Shown piece after piece: positions 4,452-51,643 of a DNA stretch of 64,000 bases. The DNA comes from Naegleria gruberi (lineage: Eukaryota). Each line of letters opens with the position of its first letter. Within the stretch, counting starts at the first letter, position 1. The notes beneath the pieces are model-generated. The model did no database searches, was not told the origin of the DNA, and was given only the letters and a program-made list of their open reading frames with translations. The DNA lies in assembly GCA_000004985.1 (NCBI GenBank), contig GG738899.1; one strand, given 5' to 3'. Position numbers and translations under genes: made by a program.

Positions 4452-4813
4452 GGAGTTGTTTATAAATGGAATTTTTACTTATTCTATAACATCAACAACA
4501 AAAGTTCGCCTCTCTCTCACCTGATTGAATCTTCTCCTGGGTGTTGAGGGGAAATTTGGAGTTGTATTCAATTTTTGGGTTCCTTATTCGAGATATGAAA
4601 ATCCTTCACCACCTGCATTCTCAATTTCGATGGGAACTGATCTAATCTTGTCTCAATACGAGGAGGTAGTGACAAGACTCATTTACACTTTCAATGTTCA
4701 AGAAATTAAATTTACCAGAGAGTAGGTAAACCATAAAATTCATTAGTAAATATAACATTCAGTTCACTTTCTAATAATTAATTGGTCACCAATTCTAACT
4801 TAGTAAAATAAAA

Positions 4814-4885
4814 AGCCCTAGAGATGTTTCGATCATCTGACCTCAACCTTATGAGGGTTATGCTCTCCCACTGAGCTACGAGGGC
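4814..4885 (-). tRNA. tRNA-Met: tRNA-Met (anticodon CAT), eukaryotic initiator-type (A54, A60 in the T-loop), with one acceptor-stem mismatch
   Basis: The minus-strand sequence GCCCTCGTAGCTCAGTGGGAGAGCATAACCCTCATAAGGTTGAGGTCAGATGATCGAAACATCTCTAGGGC folds as a cloverleaf: U8, A14, G18G19, D-stem GCTC/GAGC, anticodon loop CTCATAA. The T-loop ATCGAAA is the initiator hallmark (human tRNAi-Met has GGATCGAAACC). Acceptor pair 6:67 is a C:T mismatch. Confidence 0.7.
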
Positions 4886-5366
4886 TTTGATCAACAAAAC
4901 CAAAAAATATCAAAATTATCGTAAACGAAAAAGATTTTAAATTCCAAAAATTCATTTAAATTAAACTTTAAAGTTTGTTAAAATTGGTTTTTACAATGTC
5001 ACCGTAGTGTGAACACCAAACTGTAAAGTGTTGAACTCGTCAATTAGAAATATTTGAACTTTACAATAAAAAATTCTTGCCTGAATTAATTGACAATTGT
5101 AGCCATGCACTTCCACTCCTGTTTTAAAGAACCATTACAATGAACATTTTTCCGTACAAAGATAAAATGTGCTAAGTGATAATTCCTTGTTAATAACCAG
5201 CTTAGATGTTTGGGTTTCCAAATTCTGTTTCTGGCCATAACAAGCTGTCATTCTACTTTATTGATCACTGACAGCTACCAAATGATTGGATTGAACAAAA
5301 ATAAACACTTCAAAAACCTCTTCATTGTTCTTTTTAAAAATAATAAATTTAAAAAAAACCAAACAA

Positions 5367-10018: not shown

Positions 10019-11490
10019 ATGAGAGTATTTAAACAACGTATTAAAGTTAAACTTGGAAAGGCTGAATCTACTCAAGACCCAGAAGGATACAATGACTTAC
10101 GTGATCAAGTGAAAAAGACTGAAAATTATGCTAAAGGAGCTTTAAAGATTGTGAGAGGATATTGTCAAAAATCCGAAGCAATTACAAAGGTTCAAAATGA
10201 AGTTGGTCAATACTTGGTAGAAAGTGGTATGCAAACAAATGATGAAGGTAAGTTAATTTCTAGAGGATTCGGCTCAGTTAATAATTTTATGATGTTTGAT
10301 TGATGAAAATGACGAATTGACACAGTTGGTGAATCTTTGATGAAAATTGGAGAAGGATTAAAATCACTTGCTACTATTCACCATGCCATGTTGGTTAACA
10401 TTGTTGAAAAGTTTATTCAACCAGCTACAGAATTCAAGAAGGAAGTCAAGGATTCTGAAGTTTCTCATAAAAAGTATGACAAGAAGCGTTTGGAATTTGA
10501 TGCCCAAGTAGATCTTGTCAATTCATTAAAGCAAAAGGGTGAAAAGGTAGATCCACAAAAAGTTCAAACAGAAGAAGAAAAACAAACACAATTTGACAAT
10601 GAAAAGGATGAAGCTTTTGAAGAAACATTGGAAGAAACTTGTGATGTTTTGGTAAAGAGACAAACCAAGCACTTGGCACAACTCAATGAATTACTTTTGA
10701 GTTTCCACCACTTTTTTGCTGAAGGTTATACTCTTACACACGATTTGAAGGAACCATTGGAAAAATTAATGGAAAAATCCAACAAGAAAGCTTCCACATT
10801 CAAACAACAAACAGTGGAAAGTGTTTTGGGTGGAGGAGGATCTATCAGATCAACACCATCACAATCTTCATTCACACCTTCAACTAAATCAAACACTGAA
10901 ACATCAACTTCAACAGTCACAACAACCTCAACAGCCAAGTCATCAACTAATACTACTTCAACTAGTGCTGTTGGTGGTATGGGAGCTGCCTTCTCAGCTG
11001 CCAAAAAGACAGAAAGTGCTGCAGCAACAGTTTTGTGTAAATGTAAGGCCATGTATACTTATGATGCTCAGGATAGCACAGAAATTTCATTCACTGAAGG
11101 TGAAACTATTTTGGTTTATGAAAAGGAAGAAGGTGGATGGTGGAGAGGTGCTAGAGAAGCTACTCCAACCAAGTCTGGTATCTTCCCATCTAATTTCGTT
11201 GTAGATTCTAGTGCTTCTTCAGGTAGTGGAAAAACAACAACTGCATTGTATGATGTAAGTATTATTTGTTTTATTGGAATTGATTTATTAATTATTTTAT
11301 CATTTAAAATTATTTTGTTAAATTATTTAAATAGTATGAAGCTCAAGAATCAAACGAATTAACTTTCAAAGCAGGAGAAGTTATTGAAGTCATTGAGGAA
11401 GCAGATGGAGGGTGGTTTATGGGCAAGAATTTGTCAACAAACAAGGTTGGTCTTTTCCCTTCAAACTTTACAGAACTAGGAGCACAATAA
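10019..11490 (+). CDS. BAR-domain protein with two C-terminal SH3 domains (amphiphysin/Rvs167/endophilin-like). join(10019..10247,10326..11254,11334..11490)
   Basis: Intron 1 is 10248..10325 (GTAAGT...CACAG) and intron 2 is 11255..11333 (GTAAGT...AAATAG). The exon 2-3 junction restores a complete SH3 domain (ALYD|YEAQESNELTFKAGEVIEVIEEADGGWFMGKN...GLFPSNF). The first SH3 domain is CKAMYTYDAQDSTEISFTEGETILVYEKEEGGWWRG. The N-terminal 250 aa are helical and BAR-like. Confidence 0.7.
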
Positions 11491-11609
11491 ATATAAATAA
11501 AAATATTAGAAATTAATTTATTAAATTTAAATGTTATTATAATTCCAATAATTCCTAATTATTTAATTGATATTTATTTAATTAATAAATAAAATATTTC
11601 AAAAATAAT

Positions 11610-12344
11610 TTAATTACTCTTAATAATTCCATCAATCATTGAAATCCAATCAGCAGCAGTGAAATCATATCCATTGAAAACATTAACACCATTAACAAAG
11701 AAGAATGGAGTTCCATACAATCCTCTTGAAGTAGCATAACCAAACATTGAAGCAGCTTGAGCAAATGATGATTGACTATTCATTTCACTCAAATATTGTT
11801 CATAACTAATCAATCCCAATGGTTGAACATAGGTAGCATAGATCAAGTTGAAAATTTGAGCTTGATTCATATTCTTCAAATTAGCATTTGAAGCAGGTGA
11901 TTGATTACTAAAGAATAAATCCAAAAACTTCCAACAAACATTTCTATCAGCCTTTGAAAACTTGGAAACAATCGAATAGGTTTGAGCAGAATAAAATCCA
12001 GCAATATGCATTGGCAATGGCATCAAATGAAGACTAAAAACAACCTTATCTTGATTTCCAGAAGTTCCATTATTAAAATAATATTGAACAAGAGGCTTGG
12101 TAATACTTTGGAAATGTGTAGCACAATCAGGACAAGTCAAATCCAAGAACATTTCAAATTCAACAAGTGTATTCGGAGAGGAATTTCCAATAGTCCATGA
12201 ATTTTTCAAATTACTAATTCTTGGTCCGACTGGTGTAATGGCGAGTGATGATTGAGTAGAAAGGAATAAAATCATCATTACCATCATCACGATGGAAGCA
12301 AAAAGAGCGCGTGATGAGCGGGTGCTGCTGAGATGTTGAGACAT
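11610..12344 (-). CDS. DsbA-like thioredoxin-fold protein (Thioredoxin_4 / DSBA family, CPDC active site) with an N-terminal signal anchor
   Basis: Single 244-aa exon. Hydrophobic N-terminus IVMMVMMILFL. The motif EFEMFLDLTCPDCATHF matches the F-x-D-x-x-CPxC pattern of DsbA/Com1-type oxidoreductases. Confidence 0.55.
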   Translation of the reverse strand: MSQHLSSTRSSRALFASIVMMVMMILFLSTQSSLAITPVGPRISNLKNSWTIGNSSPNTLVEFEMFLDLTCPDCATHFQSITKPLVQYYFNNGTSGNQDKVVFSLHLMPLPMHIAGFYSAQTYSIVSKFSKADRNVCWKFLDLFFSNQSPASNANLKNMNQAQIFNLIYATYVQPLGLISYEQYLSEMNSQSSFAQAASMFGYATSRGLYGTPFFFVNGVNVFNGYDFTAADWISMIDGIIKSN

Positions 12345-12799
12345 TTTTTTTTGATGATTCTTCTCCGAACGGAGTTAAAACGGATCAGTTCAAATAGATT
12401 AATCTTTCAGAAAGAAGGAGATTCTGTCTTAATCTTTGACAATATTCGAATATGAACTGTTTCGATTAATTTTTATGAGAAATCTGAATATTAAATCATA
12501 CAAGAAATTGAGATTAATTGGATGAGTCAAACCCTTACTGTTCAACTATTCATAACCTTGAAACTGTCATTGTAACAAAAAACTGTAAGACTTTACAATA
12601 AGAGTGTTGTAAAGGAAACATTTCACATCACATCTGACATCAAACAATTTATTTGTGATTTTTGGCAAGTGTTTGCCATCCTCCTAATTAATAGGCATAC
12701 CCTATTTGTTGGTGCACTTCCGTATTCACATCAGTTCGATAATATTTATTTAAACTACCGCTTCTTTTATTAGAATCTCACAAAAAACAGAAAAAAAAT

Positions 12800-13475
12800 A
12801 TGCAAACTAAATCTTCCCTCCTCGTTTTATATTTCACACTAGTTGCAACTGTTTTGTGTGTTTTGACTTGTTCGGCTCAAGCTTCTATCAACTTGAACGT
12901 TCCAATGAAAACTCAAACTTTTCAGTCAACTTTCAAGTATCCTAGCGCTCAAGCTGCTTATCAAGTTTTGAAGACAACTGAAGTTATGTTCAGTTTGCAA
13001 CCTTATGTGTAGGTATTTGTTGTTAAATTGTTGTTTTTCTTATCAATTTATTCCGTAAATTAACAATTATTAATTTGACATTTTGACATTTAACAGATAT
13101 TATGTTCAAATTATTTCTCAAACTGATACCTCTCGTGAATTAGATTTTGCTGAGAAAATCCCAGTCTTCTTTGGTGTTTTCAATTATGATACTGGTAAAT
13201 TGAGAGCTGTCCAAGCTTTTGACAATTCTCAAAGATCCATCGTGTCAAATGTCCCATTCCCAGGTGGTTTAGGAACTTTGGTTGCTAATCTTTCATTCAC
13301 TGAATCTGCAGATGTCGACGAAAATGGCTTAAAGACAATTACTTGTAATGAAATTGTCAATGGTCAAGTTTTCTTGCTTGCTAAATTATTTGTTGAAGAT
13401 AGTGTTAAGAGTGCTCATACTCAATTGGTTGCTGATATTGCAAATTATTTCACTACTCATCCAGCTAGTGCTTAA
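12800..13475 (+). CDS. Small secreted protein of unknown function. Two exons: join(12800..13008,13097..13475)
   Basis: Signal peptide MQTKSSLLVLYFTLVATVLCVLTCSAQA. An 88-nt intron (GTAGGT at 13009, AACAG acceptor ending 13096) removes the in-frame TAG and joins ...SLQPY-V-YYVQIISQ... in frame with ORF 13083..13475. No recognised domain. Confidence 0.4.
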
Positions 13476-13589
13476 ATAAAAAGTTAACATTTTCCCGCCA
13501 ATTTACTAATTAGGACATTATTTCTCTTCATAGCAAGACTGGAAAATTGTTTTTTGGCTACCTGAAATCTGCGAAGTCAGTTTTTACCA

Positions 13590-13680
13590 GCTGATTATTT
13601 TTAGTCGCGAGTTTTTGATATGGTCTAGCTGGTTTTGACCATCCCAGCGCTGGGATGGTAAGCTTAAAAATTCTCCACCA
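13590..13680. repeat. Nested palindrome / cruciform-forming inverted repeat in a convergent 3'-3' intergenic region
   Basis: A perfect 20-bp palindrome ccatcccagcGCTGGGATGG is nested inside a second inverted repeat (ctagctggt ... accagctag). accagctg recurs upstream. Confidence 0.5.
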
Positions 13681-13756
13681 GCTAGTCTTGCTATGTCTTT
13701 AACTAAACAATGAGAATTTGCTAGTGGAATATGAAAATATTTAATGTAGTTTAAAC

Positions 13757-16700
13757 TTATTTAAAATATGGATATTTGAGTAATTGTCTAGCTTGTGGTC
13801 TTGTTGCGCTATCTTTACCAACCATTTCAATAACGAGTTCAATAAGCTCAGTTGAGTAAATATTTGGTTTTTGCATATTTTCTGTAAGGATTTGTTTAAC
13901 TTGAGAACTGTCTTTAGAAAAATGGAGATGACTGATGGCAGTTGTAGTGTCATGTGTCATTAATTGATAAATAGTTACACCCAAACTGTAAACATCTGTG
14001 TTAAAACCATAACTTGCTCCCAAACCTAGTTCTGGACTCTGTGAAAATTGTTAACTTTCGAATAGCAATATACTAAACTTACCAAAAACATTGGAGTTCC
14101 ACAATAACTGTTATTTGCAGAAAGTGAATTATCCCTCGCCAATCCGAAATCTGCCAAAACTACCTGAATGTAATCTTGAGTCAATTCCTTAATAAAAATA
14201 TTCGATTCCTTAACATCTCTGTGAATCAGTTTCTTCTCTTCATGAATATATTCTAAAGCATTCAACATTTGGAACAATACACTTTTCAACAAGGTTTCGG
14301 ATATTTGAACTTTAAGTAAACTTGTCAAATCTCCCTTGTCATAATATTCCATCTCAATAACCAATAATTCATTCTTATCAACGAACATGTCATTCACCTT
14401 AATAATATTTGGATGTGCCATGTTCAATAATTGTAAACCTTCTTTCATGAATTGGTTTAGTTCAGAATAGGATTGGAATTTGATAGCTTTTAGAGCTTTG
14501 AAAGAATTGGTTTTGACATCGAAAGCTCTAAAGACAGATCCGAAACCTCCACTTCCAATCTTTACCATGTCCTTGAAACGACTCAATGGATCAAAAGAAG
14601 AAGAACTTGAGCTAGTTCCATTTGTGGAAGACGAAACTGATTGGAATTCCATGGTTGGTCGGAAGAATATGGAAGCTTCAGATTCGGGAAAATCGGTTGC
14701 TGTTATATCATTCTTGGATTCTATCATTTCCAAGTTGAGGTTTTCATTTGATTTCTTTTTTTTCCTAAAATAGAAAATTAGAATGATAATCAAAATTACA
14801 ATAATGACAATTAATAGAAAGACTGAAAGGATGGGAACTAGAGTTGCTATCAGAACTACTTGAGTTTCTTGTTGCTTTGAACTTTCTGGTGAGATTCGTA
14901 ATTGAGAACATTCGTTTCCAGAATAGTTTAAAGTACAGTTACATTGATTAGGAGAAACACATTGTCCTCTTTCTATGCCATTACATGCATCACTTGAATT
15001 CTTACCATAACAAATTGGAAGGCAATTCTCAAAATTTGAAATGAAATATCCAGTTGGACAGTTGACTGAAATTTTGTAAACAGTTCTAGCATTTGCAAAA
15101 AATATTTCACCAGTAGATTCACTAACAACAATCGAATTAGGATTACTATAAAAAACCATAATAATATCAACCTTTCCTTCCTTGTTTAGTTTCTTCAATC
15201 TTCCATTCTCAGCAAAATAAACTATTCCATTAATATTCGAAACATAAAGTGTACTAACAGCCTGTTGAGGGATATAAACAGTCGTTACAATTCCATTGCT
15301 ATCAATTTTCCTTATACCAACCGTATCTACATAATAGATTGAATCGGATAAACTATCGTAGCTTAATGAAACAGCACTTGAAATGATAAAATCAGTTGCT
15401 AGGGATCCGTCTGAGGAACGAGTGCCTCCACCAGCTACTTTTGAAATGGTATTATTTGAGGCCAATCTTATCAAGATATTATCTGAAAAGAATAAATAAC
15501 CACCTTCCTTATATGGTACAATTAATTTTGGACGTGGAATGTCTGTTAATCGATTGTTGACAACAGAACTTCCAGATCCAAACAAATCAAACGTTATCGT
15601 ATCAGTGAATGCTCGTACAATACAACGACACTGGTAGAAATTCTTGAGAAAAGGTTTTCAGGCATAATTGAGTCAACTACCACAACACTGCCTTGGAGTT
15701 TGGCTAATTTTAAAAATGCATGGGGCAATCCGGAGTGCCCTGTCTGTAGGGTATTGTCATTGTATTGTTCTGTGATTTCCATAATCTGCAAAGATATATT
15801 GGTTTGCAACTTTAGTAATTCCTGAAATTCCAGAAAGTTTTGTTTTCCTATTGTCAAACTCTGAGTTGTAATAACCTCCCAAACAAGGACCAATCAGATT
15901 TTTAACTCCCTTGCTTTGTAGATTGTATTGGAGTACTAGATTTTCACTTTGACTATATAAAATTAAATTATTTCCTGACATGGCTAAATTGGCCGAAAGG
16001 TCAACAAATTGTGGATCTTCACCATTGTATTCTCTGTAAACAGCTCCATAACCAGCTATTGTACTTAGTTTAGATGTTGTGTCGTTATACTTTCTTATTA
16101 ATTGATTTCCAGAATCGCAAATAATAAGTGTTCCATTTTGGTCAACTGTAAACGCAGTTGGATATCTTAATTTGTTATCATCAAAACCTGGTACGGTTCC
16201 AATCTGCGTGTTGCCGGCATTAGTAAGGTATCCATCTTCTGAATTGGTGTAAAACGACATTCCCTTATAGCGTCCCATATTTGTTACCTTGTATGGAAAA
16301 GTTGTAAGATATTGGAAAATATTTTCTATTATGATTGCAACAGAATTACCATCTGTAACAAATATACTTGTTTGTGATTGAATAGTTTCTACATAGATTG
16401 AGGTTGGTGCCTTAAAAAGATAATCAATATTCGAAACTATTCCATTCGAAACTATTCTAATTCTTCTATTTCCAGTATCTGAAATATAGAGAATACCATT
16501 ATTGTAGAATAAACCATTTGGATTGTTAAGCTGACAATTTATGGCCAAACCTTCTCCATTATATCCAGCAGTTCCATTTCCAGCTACTCTATAAACAGTA
16601 TCTGAGCTAATATTATAACGAATTACTCTATGATTATTCGAATCTGATATATACAATGATTGATAACTACTATCCATTACCAATGATTGAGGAAAATTCA

Positions 16701-18162: not shown

Positions 18163-20274
18163 ATGATCGTTGGTGGCGCCTTAAAAGGTCTCGGAATGAT
18201 TTTTCCCGCCAATTTGGAGCATATCGTAAATGAGGAGAATGAAGAGGAATTTATTTTGATTCGGAAGGGATTTGATAATAGAAAACAAGTTGCTTTAATT
18301 TCTGGTTAGTAACATATTCATTTGTTGGATTTGGATATATAAATTGGTGATACTATTTAATTTTATTATTTGATGATTTGATGAATTTAATTTGATTTTA
18401 ATATTATTGATGGTGATGAACAAATATGAAAAGGAGGAGGATCTGGACATTCACCATCACATGAAGGATTTGTTGCAAAAGGAATGCTCACAGCTGCTGT
18501 TTTGGGAGCTGTTTTTACTTCTCCGAGTGTTTTGCAAATCTTCAAGGCAATCACTGCTGTTACAAGCAGGAGACGAGTTGATGAAGAAGGAAAGGGATGC
18601 TTGTTGATTGTGAAGAATTATACAGGAGATATATTGAATTTTAGATTGGCTAGAGAAATGGCCATTCAAGATGGATATAATGTGGAGATGATTATTGTGG
18701 GAGATGGTATGTTGTTTGAATATATATGTGAAGATTGTAAAGTTTTTGAATGATTAGATGTTACTCATCAGAGAGGAGTTGCTGGAACTGTTTTTATTCA
18801 TAAATTGTGTGGAGCTATGGCTGAGAGAGGTGATTCATTGAGTGAGATTTTTGAGTTTATGAAATCAAAATTAAAAATCACATCGGAACAAGTATTGAAT
18901 AATGGAAATGAATCATTTATTAGGAGTATTGGAATTGGATTGAATAGTATTTCAATGCCAGGTAATTCGGAACCACTCTATGAATTGAGTGACAGCGATC
19001 CTGTCTATGAGCTCGGCTTGGGAATTCATGGAGAGAAGGGCGTTTGCAGACTTACATTTTCTCCAACTAATCCAGTCACTGAAATTTCCAACACAATGAT
19101 TGAACATTTATTACCAAAGGAATTCAGTGCCGAGAATCTCAAATTTGCTCTCATGATTAATAATTTAGGATCTACCACCTTGTTGGAAATGTACAATATT
19201 GCAAGGGTGGTAATTACCTTATTGGAAAATCAAAACATTTCTATTGAGAGAGTGTATGTTGGAACATTCATGACTGCTCTGAATATGCATGGATTCTCTC
19301 TCAGCTTGCTTAATTTAGCTCAAAACTCTGAACAATTATTAGAACTCTTGGACACTCCAACAGAGTCAATGTTTTGGCCAACTAGTTTGAATCTCTCCAA
19401 AAAATCAAACAATTCTTCGAGAACTAGTCACTCAACTGGAGGTATTAAACTGTCCCCTCAAATAGGAATAACAGCCACAACAAAATCCATCATATCTACT
19501 GAGGAAAATTCACAAGTAGAAAAATTCCTCTCACTCACAGGGGTCGTTTGTGATTTTATCTTGACAAGAATTAAAGAATATAATTCTTTGGACAGTGAAG
19601 TTGGAGATGGGGATTGCGGGAGTGCCATTGAAAGGTATGTACAAAATATCACATTATGTAATTATATAATTTATAACTATTTTATATATTTGGAATATTT
19701 TAGAGCTTGTGAATCAATTCAACAACACATCCTCAAAAAACAAGATTTGAAAATGACACTTGCCGAATTGGTTTATCAAATTGGAATTTGTGTTCAAAAT
19801 AGTGGAGGTAGTTCAGGAGCTATTATTTCCATGTTCTTTTTAAGATATTCCAAATCATTGAAAACGAATTCATTCGATCACAAGAAGGCATTCATTGAGG
19901 GAGTGCACGGAATGATGGAATTGGGTGATTCAAAGAAGGGAGACAGAACAATGCTCGATACTCTCATTCCAGTCAGTGAATATTTACAGGAACAAGAAGA
20001 ATCTATCGATGTGGAAACCATTGTTAAAGTTGCAAATGAAGGAATGGATAGTACAAAATCAATGCTTGCCAAAAGGGGTAGATCTCGTTATCTTGGAGAC
20101 AGAGTTTTAGGATTCTTAGATCCTGGTGCACTTTGCATGTTTGATATTGTCAAAATTTGGTCATTGTGGATGTTAGATAAATCACGGGTGGCTAACTCTA
20201 GCGATTTTTTTCGTGAAGTCTCCGACCCACGAGTTTTTTTTGCCACAGTAAATATTACAAGTTGTACTATTTGA
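18163..20274 (+). CDS. Dihydroxyacetone kinase / triokinase (DhaK + DhaL domains). join(18163..18304,18434..18741,18772..19634,19704..20274). The 3' end runs into the transposon, whose TIR supplies a 30-aa C-terminal extension
   Basis: Exon 1 is [15 protein letters not shown]...[10 protein letters not shown] 129-nt intron (GTTAGT...AAAAG) leads to [34 protein letters not shown] is the DhaK signature. A putative 30-nt intron (18742..18771, GTTTTT...ATCAG) removes an in-frame TGA and gives the same length between GDG and RGVAGT as in human TKFC. A 69-nt intron (GTATGT...TTTTAG) lies inside the DhaL domain, which carries GDGDCG. The reading frame reaches its stop only at 20272..20274, inside the element. 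Confidence 0.75.
20175..20182. repeat. Target-site duplication, left copy (AGATAAAT)
   Basis: Identical 8-mer immediately outside both TIR ends. Confidence 0.75.
20183..20241. repeat. Left terminal inverted repeat of the transposon
   Basis: CACGGGTGGCTAACTctagcgattttttttcgtgaagtctccgaCCCACGAGTTTTTttt. The capitalised blocks have reverse-complement partners at the right end. Confidence 0.7.
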
Positions 20275-20554
20275 ACCAATATACAATCAATAAATGTTTT
20301 GAAAATGTAAATAATCATATTTAAAGACTAGACTCTATCGTTTACCTGTTGACGAAAAATCTTGGGGTTTTATCAACCCCTAATAAAGAATTTGATGTGT
20401 GCAACAATCATAAAAATAAATATAACCATAAAAGGTATTGAAAAATGACTAACCGAGCTCAAAATCAAATATAACGAGTTTTATTCGAAATACTAATACA
20501 AAAATTGGTAAGTACCTTTCTTCTTACTTCAATAACGAAATGTAAAATTTTGAA

Positions 20555-23500
20555 TTAAATATCTTGAGAGTTGATGATTTGAGAAGGTTGCGGTTCAATT
20601 TCAATTTCCTCAAATAAGCAATTATTGCACCATCTTTCAAATTTAACACATGAATCACAAATAAGAGATCCACAATCATGACATCTACGTACTGACTGAG
20701 TTCTGAAGTGACATGATTCACAGACAAATTGAGGGAAATGAGTGGAACAATTTTTACAAACTCCTTGAAATTCACATAAATTACAAATCTCCACTCCACA
20801 TTGATTACACTCATCAAGTGATTTTGTGTATCCTAAACAAATGTGGCATGGATAAATTGGATAGAAAAGTTCTGTAAAACAATCTATGCAATATAATTGA
20901 TGCCAACATGAATCACAAAACAACCTGAAACAATCACCACACTTATTAATTCCTCTCTCATGTCTACAATAGTTGCAACCTTGTTGTTCACAAATATCTG
21001 GATCACATTTACAAGTATTTGGAAAGCAATATCGTTCATTCTTCTTACAGGAGCATTTAAGGTTTGAGCAACTGGTTGTACAACGGCATCCTGTTACCTT
21101 AGTAAGCTTGGATTCTGAATTTGATTTCTTTCTTTTTTTCTCAATATTTGAGGTTTTAGAGAATTCTTGAATATTCGAAATGGCTGTGTTAACATCATCA
21201 AAAAATTTGTTTAAAATATTAAATAATCCAATTACATCAAAGAATGCACAATGACAATCCGCAACATTTCCCACTTGGAAATGTTCAATTAACATTTCTT
21301 CTTTGAATGCAGTTCTTCCACTACTCTCTTTTTTTGGTAATTTGTGATGTAGATCTTTGTGGCTTTTCATTAATTTCAAGGAATCTACGAAAACTATATT
21401 TTCAAACTTTGATTCTCTTTTCGGATAAAACTCTTTCTTAAATACTTTGAAATCAAGTATCTCACCATTGTGCGCAATTAAGAAAGTTTTCCCTTTAGTA
21501 TTACTAATAAAATCAATAATAAAATCAAGCTCCTTTTCAATGATTGGTTTGTCTCTTACATAATTCAAATTGATTCCAGTAATCTTTGTTGAATGATATG
21601 AAATTGATTTTGTTGGATTTACTAATCCATAAATTGATTCACCTGTTGCCATATTTAAAAAGCAATATTCTGTTATTTTTGGTGGATCATCATTTGTCCA
21701 AAATCCTGTTGTTTCAAAATCAAACAGAATATATTTGTCATCTCCAAAATCATGTTGAAATGGAAGACCCTTATTGTGTGTGTACAAATCATCATTGAAT
21801 AAAATTCTGGAAGCTCGTGGGATTGGTTCTGAAGGTCTAATTTTTTGATCTACTATTGATTTATCAACAGTATTTGTAATAAGTGTTAATAAATTATCAC
21901 TGTCCAATAGGTTGGAAGAATCTGACTGTTTGATTGATTTCAATAAAGCTTCAATCATTGACTGCTTTCCCTCTGAAAATGAATAATTATGAACGTTCAT
22001 TACATGTTTCAAAAATGATTTCAATCTCACAAAAGGTTGATTACATTCTTTACAAAGAATGTAAATATTATTCATGATGTTTTTTGAGTCAATGTTCGGT
22101 GGATTTTTACACATGAATTCTCGTATGAGCATAGTGTTTCTTTGAGGTTCAAATCCTTCTACAGCATCCAATATATAATCGAACATTTCAGTAAAACTAT
22201 TTTCTTTCTCTAATATTTGATCTTCTTCTTCCTCTGTAAGTTTTTTCTTATTCTTCTTCTTATACTTCTTTCTAGTTAATTCCTCATACTCCAATTCCAA
22301 ATCTATTTTTCCATAACAATTCGAATAACTCTCATTTCTCAAAACAAATGGTCCGTCACTTAGTTTTGCTTTTAACACTAACCAAACAGATCTATAACAG
22401 GAACAATAATCCATAAATGTTGGATATCTAATTTTGGATCTAACAATGCTGAAACAATGTTCTACCATTAATGTAGATAAGCTACAAGTACATAGCTCAA
22501 TTGTTGGAAATCTTGTCTTAAGCTCCTTTAAGGATTTTAATGTAATTATAATATGATCAAATAATTCATTATTTAAAGAAATATCGTTTGATTTTTGCCA
22601 TGGATTAATAAATTGAAAAACAGAGTCTAACAGAATCTCTTTTGCTTCCCAACAATAATCATTTTTGAAAATATAATAAATATCCTGCATTAGTTTTAAA
22701 TATTTAGAGACTGTTTGACAAGTAGTATTTTTTGATTTGGCCAAACCATCAATTAAATTAGTTTCTAATAATGCAAATACGGGATCCATAGCCATTTTGT
22801 CAGTAGGATAAATCACAGAATTAGGTAGCCAATCAGTTAAATTTGATTCAGATTTGGCAATCAATAACGTCTCAATTGAAAATGAAATGCCATCTATAGT
22901 CATGGTTTCATTTAGTAATCTATTTCGTAATCGTTTTAGTAGATGAGAGTAATCAAAGAAGTGAACAGTATTGGGAAATATTTTTTGTGTTTGGAAAAAT
23001 GTTAAATTTCCAGTCAATCCATCGCTACTGAAACCTACAACTTGGAAAGAATAATTATTTAACTGAATTCTTTCAAACTGTTCCTTAATCTTTTTTACTT
23101 GATCTTCCAAAAAATCTGCATGACTTGATTTTGTACAACCTGCAAACATTAAAGGGAAAGAAACACTTCCATCAATTGTAGTAGCAAAGAATTGGCAAAT
23201 GTGAGAAGCAATTTGGGAAGGTACAATTTCTTCTTTAGATTTGTATAGCTGATCAAAATCTTTTTCATTATAATCTGCAAATCCTATAACTTTTCCAGAA
23301 TCTTTAAGAACACATAACCCTCCTCTTATTTCTATTTCATCATATGAAATTATTATATTATTCGTAACTTTCTTTTTCTGTATAGATTTCAATAAAGATT
23401 GCAAATCTAAATCAGAGGTTTGCCCTGTAGATAATTTGGGAAGATAAGATTTCACTGTTGCTAGAGATGGAAGTAATAAATTCACTTCATCAAGGGCTGT

Positions 23501-24226
23501 TTGAGAATTCAAAGCTGAGCCATTTCCTTTCAATATTTTCCATATTTTTGATCCACCAAAATATCTTAAAATTAGACACCAATGAATAATAGATTCCTTA
23601 TACTGATATCCTCTTGACTTATTATAATTAGTGATATTTTCCAAAGTATTTTCCATTAATTGGTAGAAAAATTGTTGTTCATGCAGTTTTTCATCTTCAA
23701 TAGCAGCAATCACCAATTTTACAAGTTTGTGATGATGAATTTTGGATAGTTTTTCCTCTAATGAATCCAATTTTTCTTCCCGTCTTGTTAACATAGATTT
23801 TAATTGAGATACTTTCTTTCTTAATTTCTCTATTTGATCTTTTTGTTTGATTAATTTTTCGTCAGAGTTGTTTGATTTAGTGGTTGTCATATGTCGCAAT
23901 TTTTCATATAATTGATAACAATCTGTGCAAACTCCATTCCGATTTAAATTAATATTTCCACATTTCAATGATTTGAAAATGAAATTTCCATTATCATTAA
24001 ATGATACAATTCCTACTTCATTGTTTCGTTTGTCACAAACTTTTCCATCATAATTTAATAAATTCCATACTTTTTCCACAGCAACTCCTTTACATGTAGT
24101 ATTATTATTTTTACAGTTAGCACATGATCGTGTATCAGCATGTTTACATTTCCCCATGCCTTCTTTAATTTCCGAAAATCCTTTTTCTGAATTATATTCA
24201 ACTTTGATCGTTTCATCATTTGCCAA
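20555..24226 (-). CDS. Transposon-encoded 1223-aa polyprotein. N-terminal Cys-cluster region, coiled coil, central region of about 600 aa (putative transposase core, unclassified), DEDDh 3'-5' exonuclease domain, C-terminal array of at least 8 B-box/zinc-ribbon-like CxxC...CxxC modules
   Basis: Intronless 3.7-kb ORF in a genome whose host genes have an intron every few hundred bp. Exo I motif ILFDFETTGF, Exo II LIAHNGEILDFKVF, Exo III CHCAFFDVIGLFNIL (H-x-A-x-x-D): the complete DEDDh triad set. Coiled coil around DQIEKLRKKVSQLKSMLTRREEKLDSLEEKLSKI. The C-terminus carries repeated pairs of the type CQQGCNYCRHERGINKCGDC, CDSCWHQLYCIDC, CHICLGYTKSLDECNQCGVEIC, CEFQGVCKNCSTHFPQFVCESCHFR, CHDCGSLICDSCVKFERWCNNC. 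Confidence 0.75.
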   Translation of the reverse strand: MANDETIKVEYNSEKGFSEIKEGMGKCKHADTRSCANCKNNNTTCKGVAVEKVWNLLNYDGKVCDKRNNEVGIVSFNDNGNFIFKSLKCGNINLNRNGVCTDCYQLYEKLRHMTTTKSNNSDEKLIKQKDQIEKLRKKVSQLKSMLTRREEKLDSLEEKLSKIHHHKLVKLVIAAIEDEKLHEQQFFYQLMENTLENITNYNKSRGYQYKESIIHWCLILRYFGGSKIWKILKGNGSALNSQTALDEVNLLLPSLATVKSYLPKLSTGQTSDLDLQSLLKSIQKKKVTNNIIISYDEIEIRGGLCVLKDSGKVIGFADYNEKDFDQLYKSKEEIVPSQIASHICQFFATTIDGSVSFPLMFAGCTKSSHADFLEDQVKKIKEQFERIQLNNYSFQVVGFSSDGLTGNLTFFQTQKIFPNTVHFFDYSHLLKRLRNRLLNETMTIDGISFSIETLLIAKSESNLTDWLPNSVIYPTDKMAMDPVFALLETNLIDGLAKSKNTTCQTVSKYLKLMQDIYYIFKNDYCWEAKEILLDSVFQFINPWQKSNDISLNNELFDHIIITLKSLKELKTRFPTIELCTCSLSTLMVEHCFSIVRSKIRYPTFMDYCSCYRSVWLVLKAKLSDGPFVLRNESYSNCYGKIDLELEYEELTRKKYKKKNKKKLTEEEEDQILEKENSFTEMFDYILDAVEGFEPQRNTMLIREFMCKNPPNIDSKNIMNNIYILCKECNQPFVRLKSFLKHVMNVHNYSFSEGKQSMIEALLKSIKQSDSSNLLDSDNLLTLITNTVDKSIVDQKIRPSEPIPRASRILFNDDLYTHNKGLPFQHDFGDDKYILFDFETTGFWTNDDPPKITEYCFLNMATGESIYGLVNPTKSISYHSTKITGINLNYVRDKPIIEKELDFIIDFISNTKGKTFLIAHNGEILDFKVFKKEFYPKRESKFENIVFVDSLKLMKSHKDLHHKLPKKESSGRTAFKEEMLIEHFQVGNVADCHCAFFDVIGLFNILNKFFDDVNTAISNIQEFSKTSNIEKKRKKSNSESKLTKVTGCRCTTSCSNLKCSCKKNERYCFPNTCKCDPDICEQQGCNYCRHERGINKCGDCFRLFCDSCWHQLYCIDCFTELFYPIYPCHICLGYTKSLDECNQCGVEICNLCEFQGVCKNCSTHFPQFVCESCHFRTQSVRRCHDCGSLICDSCVKFERWCNNCLFEEIEIEPQPSQIINSQDI

Positions 24227-24356
24227 TTTTTCAACAAATCTTATTAGCTTCTGATAATGACTGTGACATAAACGTGACGTTTTTTTGTTGATTATTATAT
24301 TATCAGGAACATTTCTTGTGCCAGGCTGTTTACAACAACAACAACTTGTACGTTGT

Positions 24357-24408
24357 TTTCTTCATGACATTTTTTTGTTTTTTACTCAAAAAAATGTCAT
24401 GAAGACCC
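24357..24408. repeat. Second subterminal hairpin inside the transposon, just upstream of the ORF start
   Basis: cttcatgacattttttt gttttttactc aaaaaaatgtcatgaag (17-bp perfect inverted repeat). Confidence 0.6.
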
Positions 24409-24612
24409 AACACAGCCGGAGTTCTTTACCTAGGATGTTCAAGCCAAGTATTATTCTCAAGAAACTAGAACCAATTCATAAATTAAATATTTAATTAGAT
24501 TACTAGTAATAACCCGCCAGGTTCATACAATGAATAAACATTTAAATTTTTTTATTTTTTAACGGAATTAATTTGCTTTGATGAAAATATAATGGAGACT
24601 GTTGGTATGTTT

Positions 24613-24721
24613 CATGCAAAGTTCCACGTTGGTCAAATAATTATTAACATCAACAAGTAGTAGAAAACAGTAGGTTTTAAATTATTGGATTAGTTTTTTG
24701 ACCAACGTGGAACTTTACATG
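24613..24721. repeat. Subterminal hairpin inside the transposon (25-bp inverted repeat, one mismatch, about 60-nt loop)
   Basis: catgcaaagttccacgttggtcaaa ... tttgaccaacgtggaactttacatg. Confidence 0.65.
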
Positions 24722-24934
24722 AACGAGGGCACACTTTGAAGATTATTTTTCTGTGGCTTTATGTTATTCTTGTAATATATCTACAGACTCGGAAAGTTGC
24801 CAAGCAATAAATAAACAATACTAGTACTCATATGTTCAAAAGAATGACAAAGATCAACTTTAGATGTATTATAAATCGATTTAAAAGTTGAAAATTATTT
24901 ATTGATGAGCAACAACAAATTCCAATTTTATTTA

Positions 24935-24999
24935 AAAACTCGTGGGACACAAATGCTCGATTGCCTGAGCCAAAAATGACCCATAGTTAGCCACCCGTG
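24935..24999. repeat. Right terminal inverted repeat of the transposon
   Basis: AAAAACTCGTGGGacacaaatgctcgattgcctgagccaaaaatgacccatAGTTAGCCACCCGTG. Confidence 0.7.
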
Positions 25000-25007
25000 A
25001 GATAAAT
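25000..25007. repeat. Target-site duplication, right copy (AGATAAAT)
   Basis: Identical 8-mer immediately outside both TIR ends. Confidence 0.75.
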
Positions 25008-25194
25008 GATTGAGTTTTGTGAAACAGCTCATCAACGGAAATTGGTTGTATCCAATTAATTTTCAAAAAAGAAATCCATTATCTTACTGTAATCAATTAT
25101 TACAATCTAAAATTGATTACAAGTAGCATCTGATACCAACACCATTATAACCAAACTGTTGAAACTTGACGAAACTTTTTCATCTTTAAAAAAA

Positions 25195-26496
25195 ATGAAA
25201 AGATTCATTGGTGGTTTATTTCTCGTACTAATCTTTGCCACTGTTGCCATGTGTGCCAGCAGTGATGCATTCGACACCTTGAGTGATTACATCTCTCTCG
25301 CAGACTCCCTCAGAGGAGGTGGTTCTTCAGGAGGTGGAGGTGGCAGAGGAGGTGGATCCGGTGGTGGTGGCAGAGGAGGAGGTAGCTCTGGAAGTAGAGG
25401 AGGATCCAGCAGAGGAGGAAGTAGCTCTGGAAGATCAAGCACTGGAGGTAGATCAAGTACTGGTGGTAGATCAAGAAGTACTGGAGGAAGAGTTTCTGGA
25501 CCTGGTCGTTCACCAACTGGACCTTCTAGATCAATTGGTGCAACTAAAGGTGGAAGAGTTGGAGGAAGAGTTGGTGGAAGAGTTTCTGGACCAGGTAGAT
25601 CACCAACTGGACCTGCCAGATCAAGAGTTGGAAGAGTTTCTGGACCAGGACGTGCTCCAACATCTGTTTCCATTCAAAGAAATGCCATTCAAAGTAGAAT
25701 TAATGCTGCATTTGCTGGATTGAGTAAGGTTTCTACCAATCCTGCCTTGTCAGCTGCTCTTTCTAGATATGCCTCAATGAAAGCTGCTTCCTTGAAAGCT
25801 CCTTCAGTAACTAGTGCATTATTCTCCAAGACTCCATTGGGTCCAGTGAGTACTTTCTCAAAGGTCAACCCATCCTTGCCAACCAACAAGTTCACTAAAC
25901 CTGCAACTGTTGCCAATGTTCCTATTCCACAACCTCGTCCTGCCAATTTGGCCAAACCAGCAACTCAAACTGTTGCTGCTACTACCAGTGTCAAGAATCC
26001 AATTAATCCTGCTGGTGTCCAAAGAGTTGCTCGTAGTAAGCAACTTACTGGACCACAAGTAGCTCAAAAAGCAATTAAGGAATTAGCTGCTGCTGGTGTT
26101 ACTTTATCAGCCGATCCAAAACAAAGAATTGCTCAAATTGCTGACCAAATGGCCAACCCAGGATCATTACACAAATGTGCTGGTTATGTTGCTGCTGCTG
26201 TTGAAGCTGCTACAGGAGTCTCTCTCAGCAGACCTGCCTCAGCTGAAGCTAAGGATTACGGAACTACCATGGCCAAGGCTGGAATGAAGTCAATTCCAAA
26301 TAATAGCACTCCACAAATTGGTGATGTCAGAGTGATTGGACCATCTCCAACCAATGCCAAGTACAGTATTGGTCATATGGAGACCTATACTGGACCAAAG
26401 AGTGGATGGGTTTCTGATTATGCTCAAGGAGTATCTGCTGTTGATAATCCAAAGAGTGCTTATCATGGAGCTTCTGTTTCTACCTATCGTTTCTAA
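25195..26496 (+). CDS. Secreted protein with a Gly/Ser/Arg-rich repetitive region, an Ala/Pro/Ser-rich linker and a C-terminal CHAP-like (cysteine, histidine-dependent amidohydrolase/peptidase) domain
   Basis: Signal peptide MKRFIGGLFLVLIFATVAMCASS. Degenerate tandem peptide repeats (GGGSGGGGRGG..., RVSGPGRSPTGP x3). The C-terminal module HKCAGYVAAAVEAATG ... IGDVRVIGPS ... YSIGHMETYTG ... WVSDY has the Cys...G-D-V...G-H-hydrophobic spacing of CHAP/NlpC-P60 peptidoglycan hydrolases. No introns. Confidence 0.55.
   Translation: MKRFIGGLFLVLIFATVAMCASSDAFDTLSDYISLADSLRGGGSSGGGGGRGGGSGGGGRGGGSSGSRGGSSRGGSSSGRSSTGGRSSTGGRSRSTGGRVSGPGRSPTGPSRSIGATKGGRVGGRVGGRVSGPGRSPTGPARSRVGRVSGPGRAPTSVSIQRNAIQSRINAAFAGLSKVSTNPALSAALSRYASMKAASLKAPSVTSALFSKTPLGPVSTFSKVNPSLPTNKFTKPATVANVPIPQPRPANLAKPATQTVAATTSVKNPINPAGVQRVARSKQLTGPQVAQKAIKELAAAGVTLSADPKQRIAQIADQMANPGSLHKCAGYVAAAVEAATGVSLSRPASAEAKDYGTTMAKAGMKSIPNNSTPQIGDVRVIGPSPTNAKYSIGHMETYTGPKSGWVSDYAQGVSAVDNPKSAYHGASVSTYRF
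25310..25680. repeat. Coding low-complexity tandem repeat (GGN/AGA-rich, irregular 9-36-nt units)
   Basis: The repetitive ggtgg/aggagg/agagg runs generate the spurious overlapping ORFs seen in all frames of the ORF track at 25283..25723. Confidence 0.5.
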
Positions 26497-51571: not shown

Positions 51572-51643
51572 GGGGACCAGTGGGAATCGAACCCACGGCC
51601 TCTCGCACCCAAAGCGAGAATCATACCACTAGACCATGGTCCC
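51572..51643 (-). tRNA. tRNA-Pro: tRNA-Pro (anticodon TGG)
   Basis: Minus strand GGGACCATGGTCTAGTGGTATGATTCTCGCTTTGGGTGCGAGAGGCCGTGGGTTCGATTCCCACTGGTCCCC. Perfect 7-bp acceptor stem, anticodon loop TTTGGGT, T-loop GGTTCGATTCC. It closely resembles the human tRNA-Pro body (GGTCTAGGGGTATGATTCTCGCTT.GGGTGCGAGAGG). Confidence 0.85.

Follow-up and report, generated by a model that had tools for sequence, protein, structure and literature searches.

Evidence for a P-element-type DNA transposon with a fused exonuclease domain, inserted on the stop codon of a Naegleria gruberi dihydroxyacetone kinase gene

In a stretch of 64,000 nucleotides of Naegleria gruberi DNA (GenBank assembly GCA_000004985.1, contig GG738899.1; the whole stretch is called the window below), we analyzed a transposon of 4,817 bp (20183–24999) that interrupts a gene for dihydroxyacetone kinase (DAK) and carries a long transposase open reading frame (ORF) on the minus strand. 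We are confident that it is a single-gene cut-and-paste transposon of the autonomous type, that it belongs to the P-element/THAP9 superfamily, and that it landed on the TGA stop codon of the kinase gene. An earlier note on this DNA had described an autonomous cut-and-paste transposon inserted on the stop codon of DAK; our data support a DDE element of this kind, whose type the note had left unassigned. The catalytic core turns out to be of the P-element type, one of the four superfamilies listed there. P elements serve as a textbook example of how DNA is moved by cut and paste, and they have a human relative in THAP9. To our knowledge, both are documented almost exclusively in animals, and in every case a THAP domain goes with them. 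The branch described here shows the P catalytic core at work in deep-branching protists, together with another, presumed DNA-binding module and with an exonuclease fused to the transposase. For the combination of a non-THAP module and an exonuclease we found no description for any DDE transposon in the searchable full-text literature, nor is an exonuclease-fused P-type transposase or any P-type element in Naegleria described there (Repbase lies outside this scope and may already catalogue the family).

The catalytic core with its alpha-helical insertion domain is encoded at 22238–23689 (minus strand) and was assigned by Pfam, profile and structure matches. PF21787 (‘TNP-like RNase H N-terminal domain’, P-element/THAP9 family) is the sole significant Pfam family in the transposase region, with 25.8–27 bits at a cut-off of 24.6. 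An exhaustive HMMER search with residues 180–800 of the 1,223-codon ORF as query gave 219 cluster representatives at E<=1e-3 (117 at E<=1e-10), and PF21787 was found in 24 of 40 long relatives, at best with 1.3e-13. When a profile of the 40 relatives was compared with the PDB, it matched the Drosophila P transposase 6p5a with E=8.5e-16, whereby AFD230EM, VSD303LG, SDTPHLIKLVRN and VE531HFFGSMRSR of 6p5a align with DEIEIR, SSDG, FDxxHLxKxxRN and VENFFSxxRxK of the family. Likewise, DEIE, SSDG and VEHCF are aligned to FDEM, SDLG and VEHFF of P, and the D-x2-H motif past the second aspartate (FDYSHLLKRLRN) aligns with SDTPHLIKLVRN of the Drosophila enzyme. With hmmalign, the DDE triad D273 (23341–23339), D379 (23023–23021) and E566 (22462–22460; all on the minus strand) falls on D230, D303 and E531 of P, which Ghanim et al. 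(2019) reportedly identified as the catalytic residues of the Drosophila enzyme.

An AlphaFold2 model based on the 40-sequence alignment (mean pLDDT 84.1, pTM 0.79) gave the same answer. The best PDB matches in Foldseek were the two strand-transfer complexes of the P transposase, 6pe2_A (E=4.6e-15) and 6p5a_A (E=6.2e-15), with TM 0.65 and about 490 aligned columns; for 6pe2_A, 491 columns were matched to the 456-residue transposase chain, and an alpha-helical insertion domain is present. The check for an RNase-H-fold transposase that had been proposed for this ORF thus leads to the P enzyme. The runner-up was the hAT transposase Hermes, with E=1.6e-4 and TM 0.2. Pfam families of hAT, MULE and KDZ gave no match at E<=1 for the N. 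gruberi protein and none at E<=0.001 in the 40 relatives. Neither the hAT dimerisation domain PF05699 nor a BED finger had a Pfam match, and no KDZ or CxC family was found at E<=1 in the whole protein or in its C-terminal 423 aa. A THAP domain was detected neither by Pfam in the protein and its relatives nor in the fold searches. The earlier note had likewise recognized no THAP, BED or MULE hallmarks and had described termini unlike those of hAT elements; indeed, the hAT pattern is not followed. The matches of PF21787, profile and model, the absence of hAT, MULE and KDZ families and a target-site duplication (TSD) of 8 bp together place the element in the P superfamily.

Compared with Drosophila P (6p5a/6pe2) and human THAP9, the element shares an RNase-H-fold DDE core in which a large alpha-helical insertion separates the second aspartate from the glutamate, the triad together with the D-x2-H and VE-x-FF motifs aligned residue by residue, the 8-bp TSD, short terminal inverted repeats (TIRs) beginning with CA, motifs internal to these repeats, and the single transposase gene. 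It differs in that the THAP domain is absent and a 4-Cys module without a PDB fold match stands in its place, that the alignment shows no conservation of the NKSD GTP-specificity motif, that PF21787 is the only one of the Pfam P-element families to be detected, and that a C2H2 finger, a DEDDh exonuclease and a Cys-rich tail are added, giving a protein of 1,200–1,269 aa. The TIRs measure 15 bp, compared with 31 bp in Drosophila P, and the repeat sequences are unrelated. On sequence grounds, the branch probably does without the GTP-specificity motif. We regard it as a separate, atypical protist branch of the P superfamily, apparently undescribed. The suggestion that the element represents a poorly described lineage is fair below the level of the superfamily, while the superfamily itself is assignable.

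The ends of the element can be read precisely. The exact 8-bp TSD AGATAAAT lies at 20175–20182 and again at 25000–25007; the final T of the left copy is base 1 of the original DAK stop codon, and the right copy, together with GA at 25008–25009, rebuilds the original TGA. The TIR CACGGGTGGCTAACT at 20183–20197 (plus strand) is the 3′ element end relative to the transposase gene, and its inverted copy at 24985–24999 (minus strand) is the 5′ end. Termini that match at 16/16 positions had been proposed. The inverted repeat is indeed perfect, but its true length is 15 bp (15/15), because base 16 pairs only through a TSD that starts with A and ends with T; as the N. lovaniensis copy shows, the TIR starts at C. 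CACGGGTGGCTAACT has only 2 matches with up to three mismatches in the 64-kb window, where 0.36 would be expected by chance. The second conserved motif noted earlier near both ends is likewise present: CCCACGAGTTTTT lies at 20226–20238 (plus strand), 44 nt inside the left end, and an inverted second copy at 24934–24946 (minus strand), 54 nt inside the right end. Its ACGAG core is also found in the 3′ end of the N. lovaniensis element, and the pair is a candidate internal transposase-binding site. The G+C content amounts to 29.7% in the element and 34.2% in the remaining window.

The 3′ end is the part that the family has kept. A block consisting of the TIR and the subterminal sequence up to ...CTCTAGCGATTTTTTTCGTGAA (20183–20218, plus strand; about 36 bp) is retained in the aligned 3′ ends of N. 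lovaniensis and N. fowleri, so that CACGGGTGG..AACTC.AGCG..TTTTTTCGTGAA is conserved across three Naegleria species and the terminus CACGGGTGG..AACT is common to all of them. Near-identical termini had been taken as a sign of a recent insertion. Since the other Naegleria species keep this terminal sequence too, the matching termini reflect function and not youth and give no date for the insertion.

Insertion on the DAK stop codon is confirmed. The 3′ part of the host gene, with Dak1 and Dak2 Pfam domains, occupies 18805–20182 (plus strand), and the Dak2 match extends to profile position 170 of 174, 9 residues ahead of the insertion. After removal of the element and one TSD copy, the gene reads ...TGG ATG TTA GAT AAA TGA (WMLDK-TGA), and the predicted empty allele is TTAGATAAATGA. 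The clean host stop described in the earlier note is thereby restored, and the ends of the orthologues agree with it: these terminate 3–11 residues past a common W-x-(K/L)-(W/L) motif, with ...WAKWFSENRK in N. lovaniensis, ...WAKWFSGETHCRE in N. fowleri and ...FWSKLI in Willaertia. With the insertion, the DAK frame continues for 30 codons into the terminal repeat, up to 20274. Since the target AGATAAAT overlaps the TGA stop, the annotated kinase closes with 30 transposon-derived residues. Indeed, the last 30 residues of the public N. gruberi DAK model P0174 are translated from the transposon end (20183–20274 of the window). This tail is a chimeric C-terminus created by the insertion and is not to be read as part of the enzyme. 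In the same ORF (18805–20274), 22 residues at about 19560–19640 are missing from the annotated DAK protein; this stretch is probably a short in-frame intron.

The transposase is encoded by a minus-strand ORF (20555–24226) that counts 1,223 codons when read from a TTG, while translation from its first ATG gives 1,200 aa. The annotated form (20555–24157; ATG 24157–24155, stop 20557–20555) matches an NCBI ‘predicted protein [Naegleria gruberi]’ with 100% identity. The single long ORF recorded before is thus present, but 204 nt of further open frame upstream of the annotated ATG had been missed, together with the ancestral ATG at 24365, which a single A puts out of frame. This 5′ extension (24158–24365, minus strand) encodes ...QRTSCCCCKQPGTRNVPDNIIINKKTSRLCHSHY... 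and, as ...QRTSCCCCKQPG..LCHSHY..., a Cys finger (CCCC...CxxH(Y)) that has its homologue at the N-terminus of the copies in N. lovaniensis (MGRPNRCCCCSLN...LLCNTHH) and in N. fowleri (MKRRRCCLCSKN...LLCNTHY). An extra A in the AAAA run 24356–24359 shifts the frame behind the start ATG-AAG-AAA (MKK; ATG 24365–24363), and deletion of one A gives an ORF of 1,269 aa that begins with MKKQRTSCCCC. As assembled, the protein must begin at M70 of this longer ORF, without the first finger and with the 4-Cys module. We considered the reading ATG-TCA-TGA, with an in-frame stop at codon 3, and rejected it; the N. fowleri copy starts with MKRRRCC..., which favours the one-A frameshift after ATG-AAG-AAA. A second ORF or upstream exon with a DNA-binding domain was rejected as well, as the upstream ORFs are short and the finger shares the frame of the main ORF.

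Two palindromes are found in the same region, and the two hairpins reported near the right end are real. One has a perfect 19-bp stem (24359–24405; z=-9.2) and overlaps the displaced start codon, while the other is imperfect with 33-nt arms (24611–24723; z=-9.0) and lies in the 5′ non-coding region; both are positioned 275–640 bp inside the element end. When we examined the corresponding 5′ regions of an N. lovaniensis, an N. fowleri and a metagenomic element, no palindrome came to light, and we therefore rejected them as a trait of the family. The displaced start codon falls within the 19-bp palindrome (TCTTCATGACATTTTTTTG/CAAAAAAATGTCATGAAGA), which ends precisely at the AAAA run with the extra A (24356–24405). 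The origin of this palindrome and the frameshift may be connected.

Downstream of the frameshift, the family alignment reveals a family-specific zinc module, C-x-G-[IV]...C-x(8-12)-C-x2-C, at residues 22–80 (23918–24094, minus strand), in which C22, G24, C66, C77 and C80 are invariant in 21 sequences. This 4-Cys module is not a THAP domain and found no PDB fold match in the fold searches; we presume that it is the DNA-binding domain. Behind the catalytic core follow a C2H2-type zinc finger, identified by weak matches (residues 702–723; 21989–22054, minus strand), the exonuclease (21203–21742, minus strand), and a C-terminal Cys-rich tail (20618–21088, minus strand) with 33 cysteines in the last 177 residues. 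The tail begins with a CxC-like cluster, continues with repeated CxxC pairs, and has no Pfam match.

The exonuclease is of the DEDDh (DnaQ/PolC-like) 3′–5′ type. PF00929 matches the C-terminal region with 29.6 bits (cut-off 24), and profile comparison with the PDB gave the PolC exonuclease 2p1j (2.6e-22), DnaQ (1e-16), the Cas2-DEDDh fusion 8fy9 (6e-13) and ExoX (1e-10), with weaker matches to RNase T (5e-4) and ERI1 (6e-3). The motifs Exo I (DxE), Exo II (D) and Exo III (H-x4-D) are all present, as D813, E815, D902, H969 and D974. More importantly, the domain occurs in 26 of the 37 family proteins with at least 900 aa, and the DEDDh residues are conserved in 27–35 of 38 distinct domains, nearly all of the remainder being gaps in truncated sequences. 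The exonuclease is therefore a selected and probably active part of the transposase.

What such a domain might do is indicated by the Cas2-DEDDh fusions of CRISPR adaptation (8fy9; E=6e-13), in which a DnaQ-like DEDDh exonuclease is likewise attached covalently to a DNA-integrating machine. There, the exonuclease trims the 3′ overhangs of DNA that is due for integration. The parallel is a functional analogy only, as Cas2-DEDDh is prokaryotic and works with an unrelated integrase (Cas1-Cas2, not a DDE transposase). By this analogy, and because its nearest relatives act on DNA, the domain may trim the 3′ single-stranded ends left by P-type staggered cleavage, whether these belong to the excised element or to the broken donor, a proposal that we favour over the alternatives but would not call probable. 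If it were true, the element would be a eukaryotic parallel to Cas2-DEDDh and would open a route to study how the unusual P-type 3′ overhangs are handled.

Relatives from other genomes allowed us to compare complete elements. The N. lovaniensis homologue (45% identity) sits within a 4,620-bp unit (L001 5087–9706) that ends with CACGGGTGGCCAACT and CACGGGTGGACAACT and is flanked on both sides by the exact 8-bp TSD GATTTTAT; this unit is an independent confirmation of the termini and of the TSD length that had been read from the N. gruberi copy. N. fowleri contains several copies or fragments; one locus reads CAGGGGTGTCCAACT...CACGGGTGGACAACT within an A-rich target, and another closes with CACGAGTGGACAACT. 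A distant metagenomic relative of 1,201 aa, with PF21787 and RNase_T, is present on six contigs (99.3–99.98% identity). It ends with TACGGGGTGCTGACT / TACGGGTGTCTGACT, and its terminus, TACGGG(G)TG.CTGACT, is related to the TIR. The left-flank 8-mer GCAGTTTT of one contig equals the right-flank 8-mer of another and is probably the 8-bp TSD of this element; within any single contig no flanking TSD match was found, a mismatch that probably arises from chimeric repeat assembly. Further relatives come from Amoebozoa (Soliformovum, Protostelium), from Pompholyxophrys and from soil metagenomes. The branch thus occurs in Heterolobosea, Amoebozoa, Rotosphaerida and soil metagenomes. For the relative on L009 we found a degenerate right terminus and no left one, the conserved 35-nt 3′ terminus had 0 matches in a metagenome scan, and a search of metagenome contigs with a single protein returned 600 pattern matches of which 0 were confirmed.

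The six near-identical contigs (L003–L008, with loci including L003 4411–8655 and L004 5015–5065) derive from peat and soil metagenomes and indicate that the family is now expanding in a soil eukaryote. One of the metagenomic copies adjoins a chromodomain retroelement of the Ty3/gypsy type, and a poly(A)/(GA)n tract is located just within the 3′ end of the metagenomic element.

The copies of N. fowleri and N. lovaniensis are strikingly similar. Over 3.5–4 kb they share 97.2–98.2% nucleotide identity (dS ~0.03, dN/dS ~0.27), whereas identity between their DAK proteins reaches only 74%, and the copies occupy different loci (N. lovaniensis: L001 5087–9706; N. fowleri: L002 6329–10087 and 15327–15370, L010 5744–9710, L011 3534–8146). 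This high identity, compared with the divergence of DAK and together with the different loci, suggests a recent horizontal transfer or a shared recent source, and the substitution pattern suggests that the transposase is under purifying selection in these copies. Two N. fowleri copies are broken by retroelements. In L002, about 5.2 kb of unrelated DNA (10088–15326) with two genes for reverse-transcriptase and RNase H domains (10100–13709) splits the element just inside its 3′ end; L010 and L011 are 99.4% identical except for a 4.8-kb segment (L010 787–5545) in the 5′ part of the element, which carries a reverse-transcriptase gene. Judged from these sequences, the family has been mobile recently outside N. 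gruberi.

The earlier note had called the N. gruberi copy intact and probably recently active, which overstates the case for this copy, as the evidence is divided. The exact TSD, the 1,200 codons that stay open in AT-rich DNA and the presence of every catalytic residue speak for intactness. The frameshift, by contrast, cuts off 69 codons including the Cys finger, and the protein database holds one family protein from N. gruberi. On the basis of the exact TSD and the 1,200 open codons we consider the insertion likely to be young. As the one extra A parts the start codon from the first 69 codons, the copy was probably crippled or weakened lately, and whether it is still autonomous is uncertain.

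Several observations weigh against our interpretation. The Pfam support from the single protein is barely over the threshold, and the other P-element Pfam domains and THAP stay undetected; the alignment shows nothing that corresponds to the NKSD GTP motif (P residues 376–379); in the assembled sequence, the 5′ Cys finger is untranslatable from the ATG at 24365, with the loss of 69 N-terminal codons; the family is represented by just one N. gruberi protein; and the sequence gives no pointer to the substrate of the exonuclease. One may ask whether hAT, Mutator/MULE, KDZ/Zisupton or Novosib, which also make 8-bp TSDs, would be the true superfamily of the element, so that the P-like signal would reflect only a general relatedness of RNase-H-fold transposases. 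The two superfamilies hAT and P are adjacent in RNase-H-fold classifications (PMC3985635). Like our element, the hAT transposons (Hermes, Ac) combine an 8-bp TSD with an RNase-H-fold DDE core that has an insertion domain, Hermes is the second structural match of the model, and THAP is missing from the transposase. Novosib and KDZ/Zisupton resemble the element in TSD length, large transposases, Cys-rich regions and protist hosts; our comparison covered the Pfam families of P, hAT, MULE and KDZ and the structures in the PDB, and for Novosib the literature yielded its existence and its small size. Yet the match to the P transposase beats that to Hermes by 11 orders of magnitude (TM 0.65 vs 0.2), and the D-x2-H motif (FDYSHLLK vs SDTPHLIK) and the VE(N/H)FF glutamate motif align with P. 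In addition, the hAT C-terminal dimerisation domain, the BED finger and the hAT-type termini are absent, the repeats of 15 bp differ from the usual long TIRs of Mutator/MULE elements, and no MULE, KDZ or CxC family matched at the thresholds given above. We therefore consider a different superfamily very unlikely. Even less credible is a domesticated, transposase-derived host gene that is not mobile at all. It would account for the single copy in N. gruberi with its long open ORF and for homologues in three Naegleria species at host-like identities (45% vs 47% for DAK), but it is at odds with the TIRs and TSD, the interrupted host stop codon, the multi-copy relatives, and homologues at non-orthologous loci that each have their own terminal repeats and flanks. 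Moreover, the DAK genes of N. lovaniensis and N. fowleri stop shortly past the conserved C-terminal motif and have no read-through tail.

Within a P-type mobile element, two narrower alternatives remain to be weighed. The N. gruberi copy could be a dead or non-autonomous P-type relic, with its finger frameshifted and no other source of transposase, a reading that conflicts with the term recently active only and that we take seriously, although we do not prefer it. The extra A separates the ATG at 24365 from the frame of a finger that N. fowleri and N. lovaniensis have kept in their copies, the database contains a single N. gruberi family protein, and Naegleria genomes are transposon-poor (PMC6125883; bioRxiv 10.64898/2026.06.24.734286). 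The exact TSD, the 1,200 codons open in DNA of about 30% G+C and the intact DDE and DEDDh residues argue in the other direction; the family-wide 4-Cys module, encoded past the frameshift, is kept in the annotated protein, and the extra A is possibly a sequencing error or a strain polymorphism. The second alternative concerns the DEDDh domain, which might stand outside transposition and act on RNA or in host defence, by ERI-1-like degradation of small RNA or TREX-like removal of free DNA. DEDDh enzymes do include ERI1, RNase T and TREX, weak matches to these were seen, and no DNA feature links the domain to the chemistry of transposition. However, the top matches by far are the DNA proofreading exonucleases PolC and DnaQ, compared with 5e-4 for RNase T and 6e-3 for ERI1, and the domain is covalently joined to the transposase in 26 of 37 long relatives, which makes a role outside transposition improbable to us. 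We keep to the reading of a P-type transposon whose exonuclease may serve transposition.

P transposition begins with site-specific binding to internal sites and formation of a paired-end complex, followed by staggered cleavage that leaves long 3′ overhangs, attack of the 3′-OH ends 8 bp apart, and host repair. Our data show how the element is built, its superfamily with a P-type DDE centre, the ends and the TSD length common to the family, integration with an 8-bp stagger, and the conservation of the catalytic residues; from these we infer binding sites, cleavage geometry, the place of the exonuclease and current mobility. The N-terminal zinc module or modules would recognize the element ends, with CACGGGTGG..AACT and the subterminal ACGAG-type motifs as likely sites. 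The DDE centre D273/D379/E566 would then excise the element and join its 3′-OH ends to target phosphates with an 8-bp stagger, repair of the resulting gaps would create the 8-bp TSD, and the trimming of 3′ single-stranded ends considered above might take place on the excised element or on the donor. A bolder proposal is that of an ancient and undescribed ‘P-Exo’ branch, in which a non-THAP zinc module reads the ends, the active exonuclease is obligatory in transposition, for instance by cutting back 3′ overhangs of the excised element or donor in the way Cas2-DEDDh treats CRISPR prespacers, and the elements pass horizontally from one amoeba species to another, the pathogen N. fowleri among them; taken as a whole, we put this forward as tentative and rather doubtful.

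An 8-bp-TSD element with short, defined ends and one gene that is native to Naegleria is also a candidate genetic tool for this genus, to which the brain-eating amoeba belongs. For the surroundings of the element we add that the ORF directly downstream of the insertion (25159–26496, plus strand) encodes an apparently hydrophobic N-terminus followed by long Gly/Ser/Arg repeats (GGRVSGPGRSPTGP...), whose composition gives rise to two overlapping out-of-frame ORFs. Finally, the window is gene-dense, with 21 ORFs of at least 300 aa, and contains a tRNA-Met (CAT) gene at 4813–4886 and a tRNA-Pro (TGG) gene at 51572–51643, both on the minus strand.

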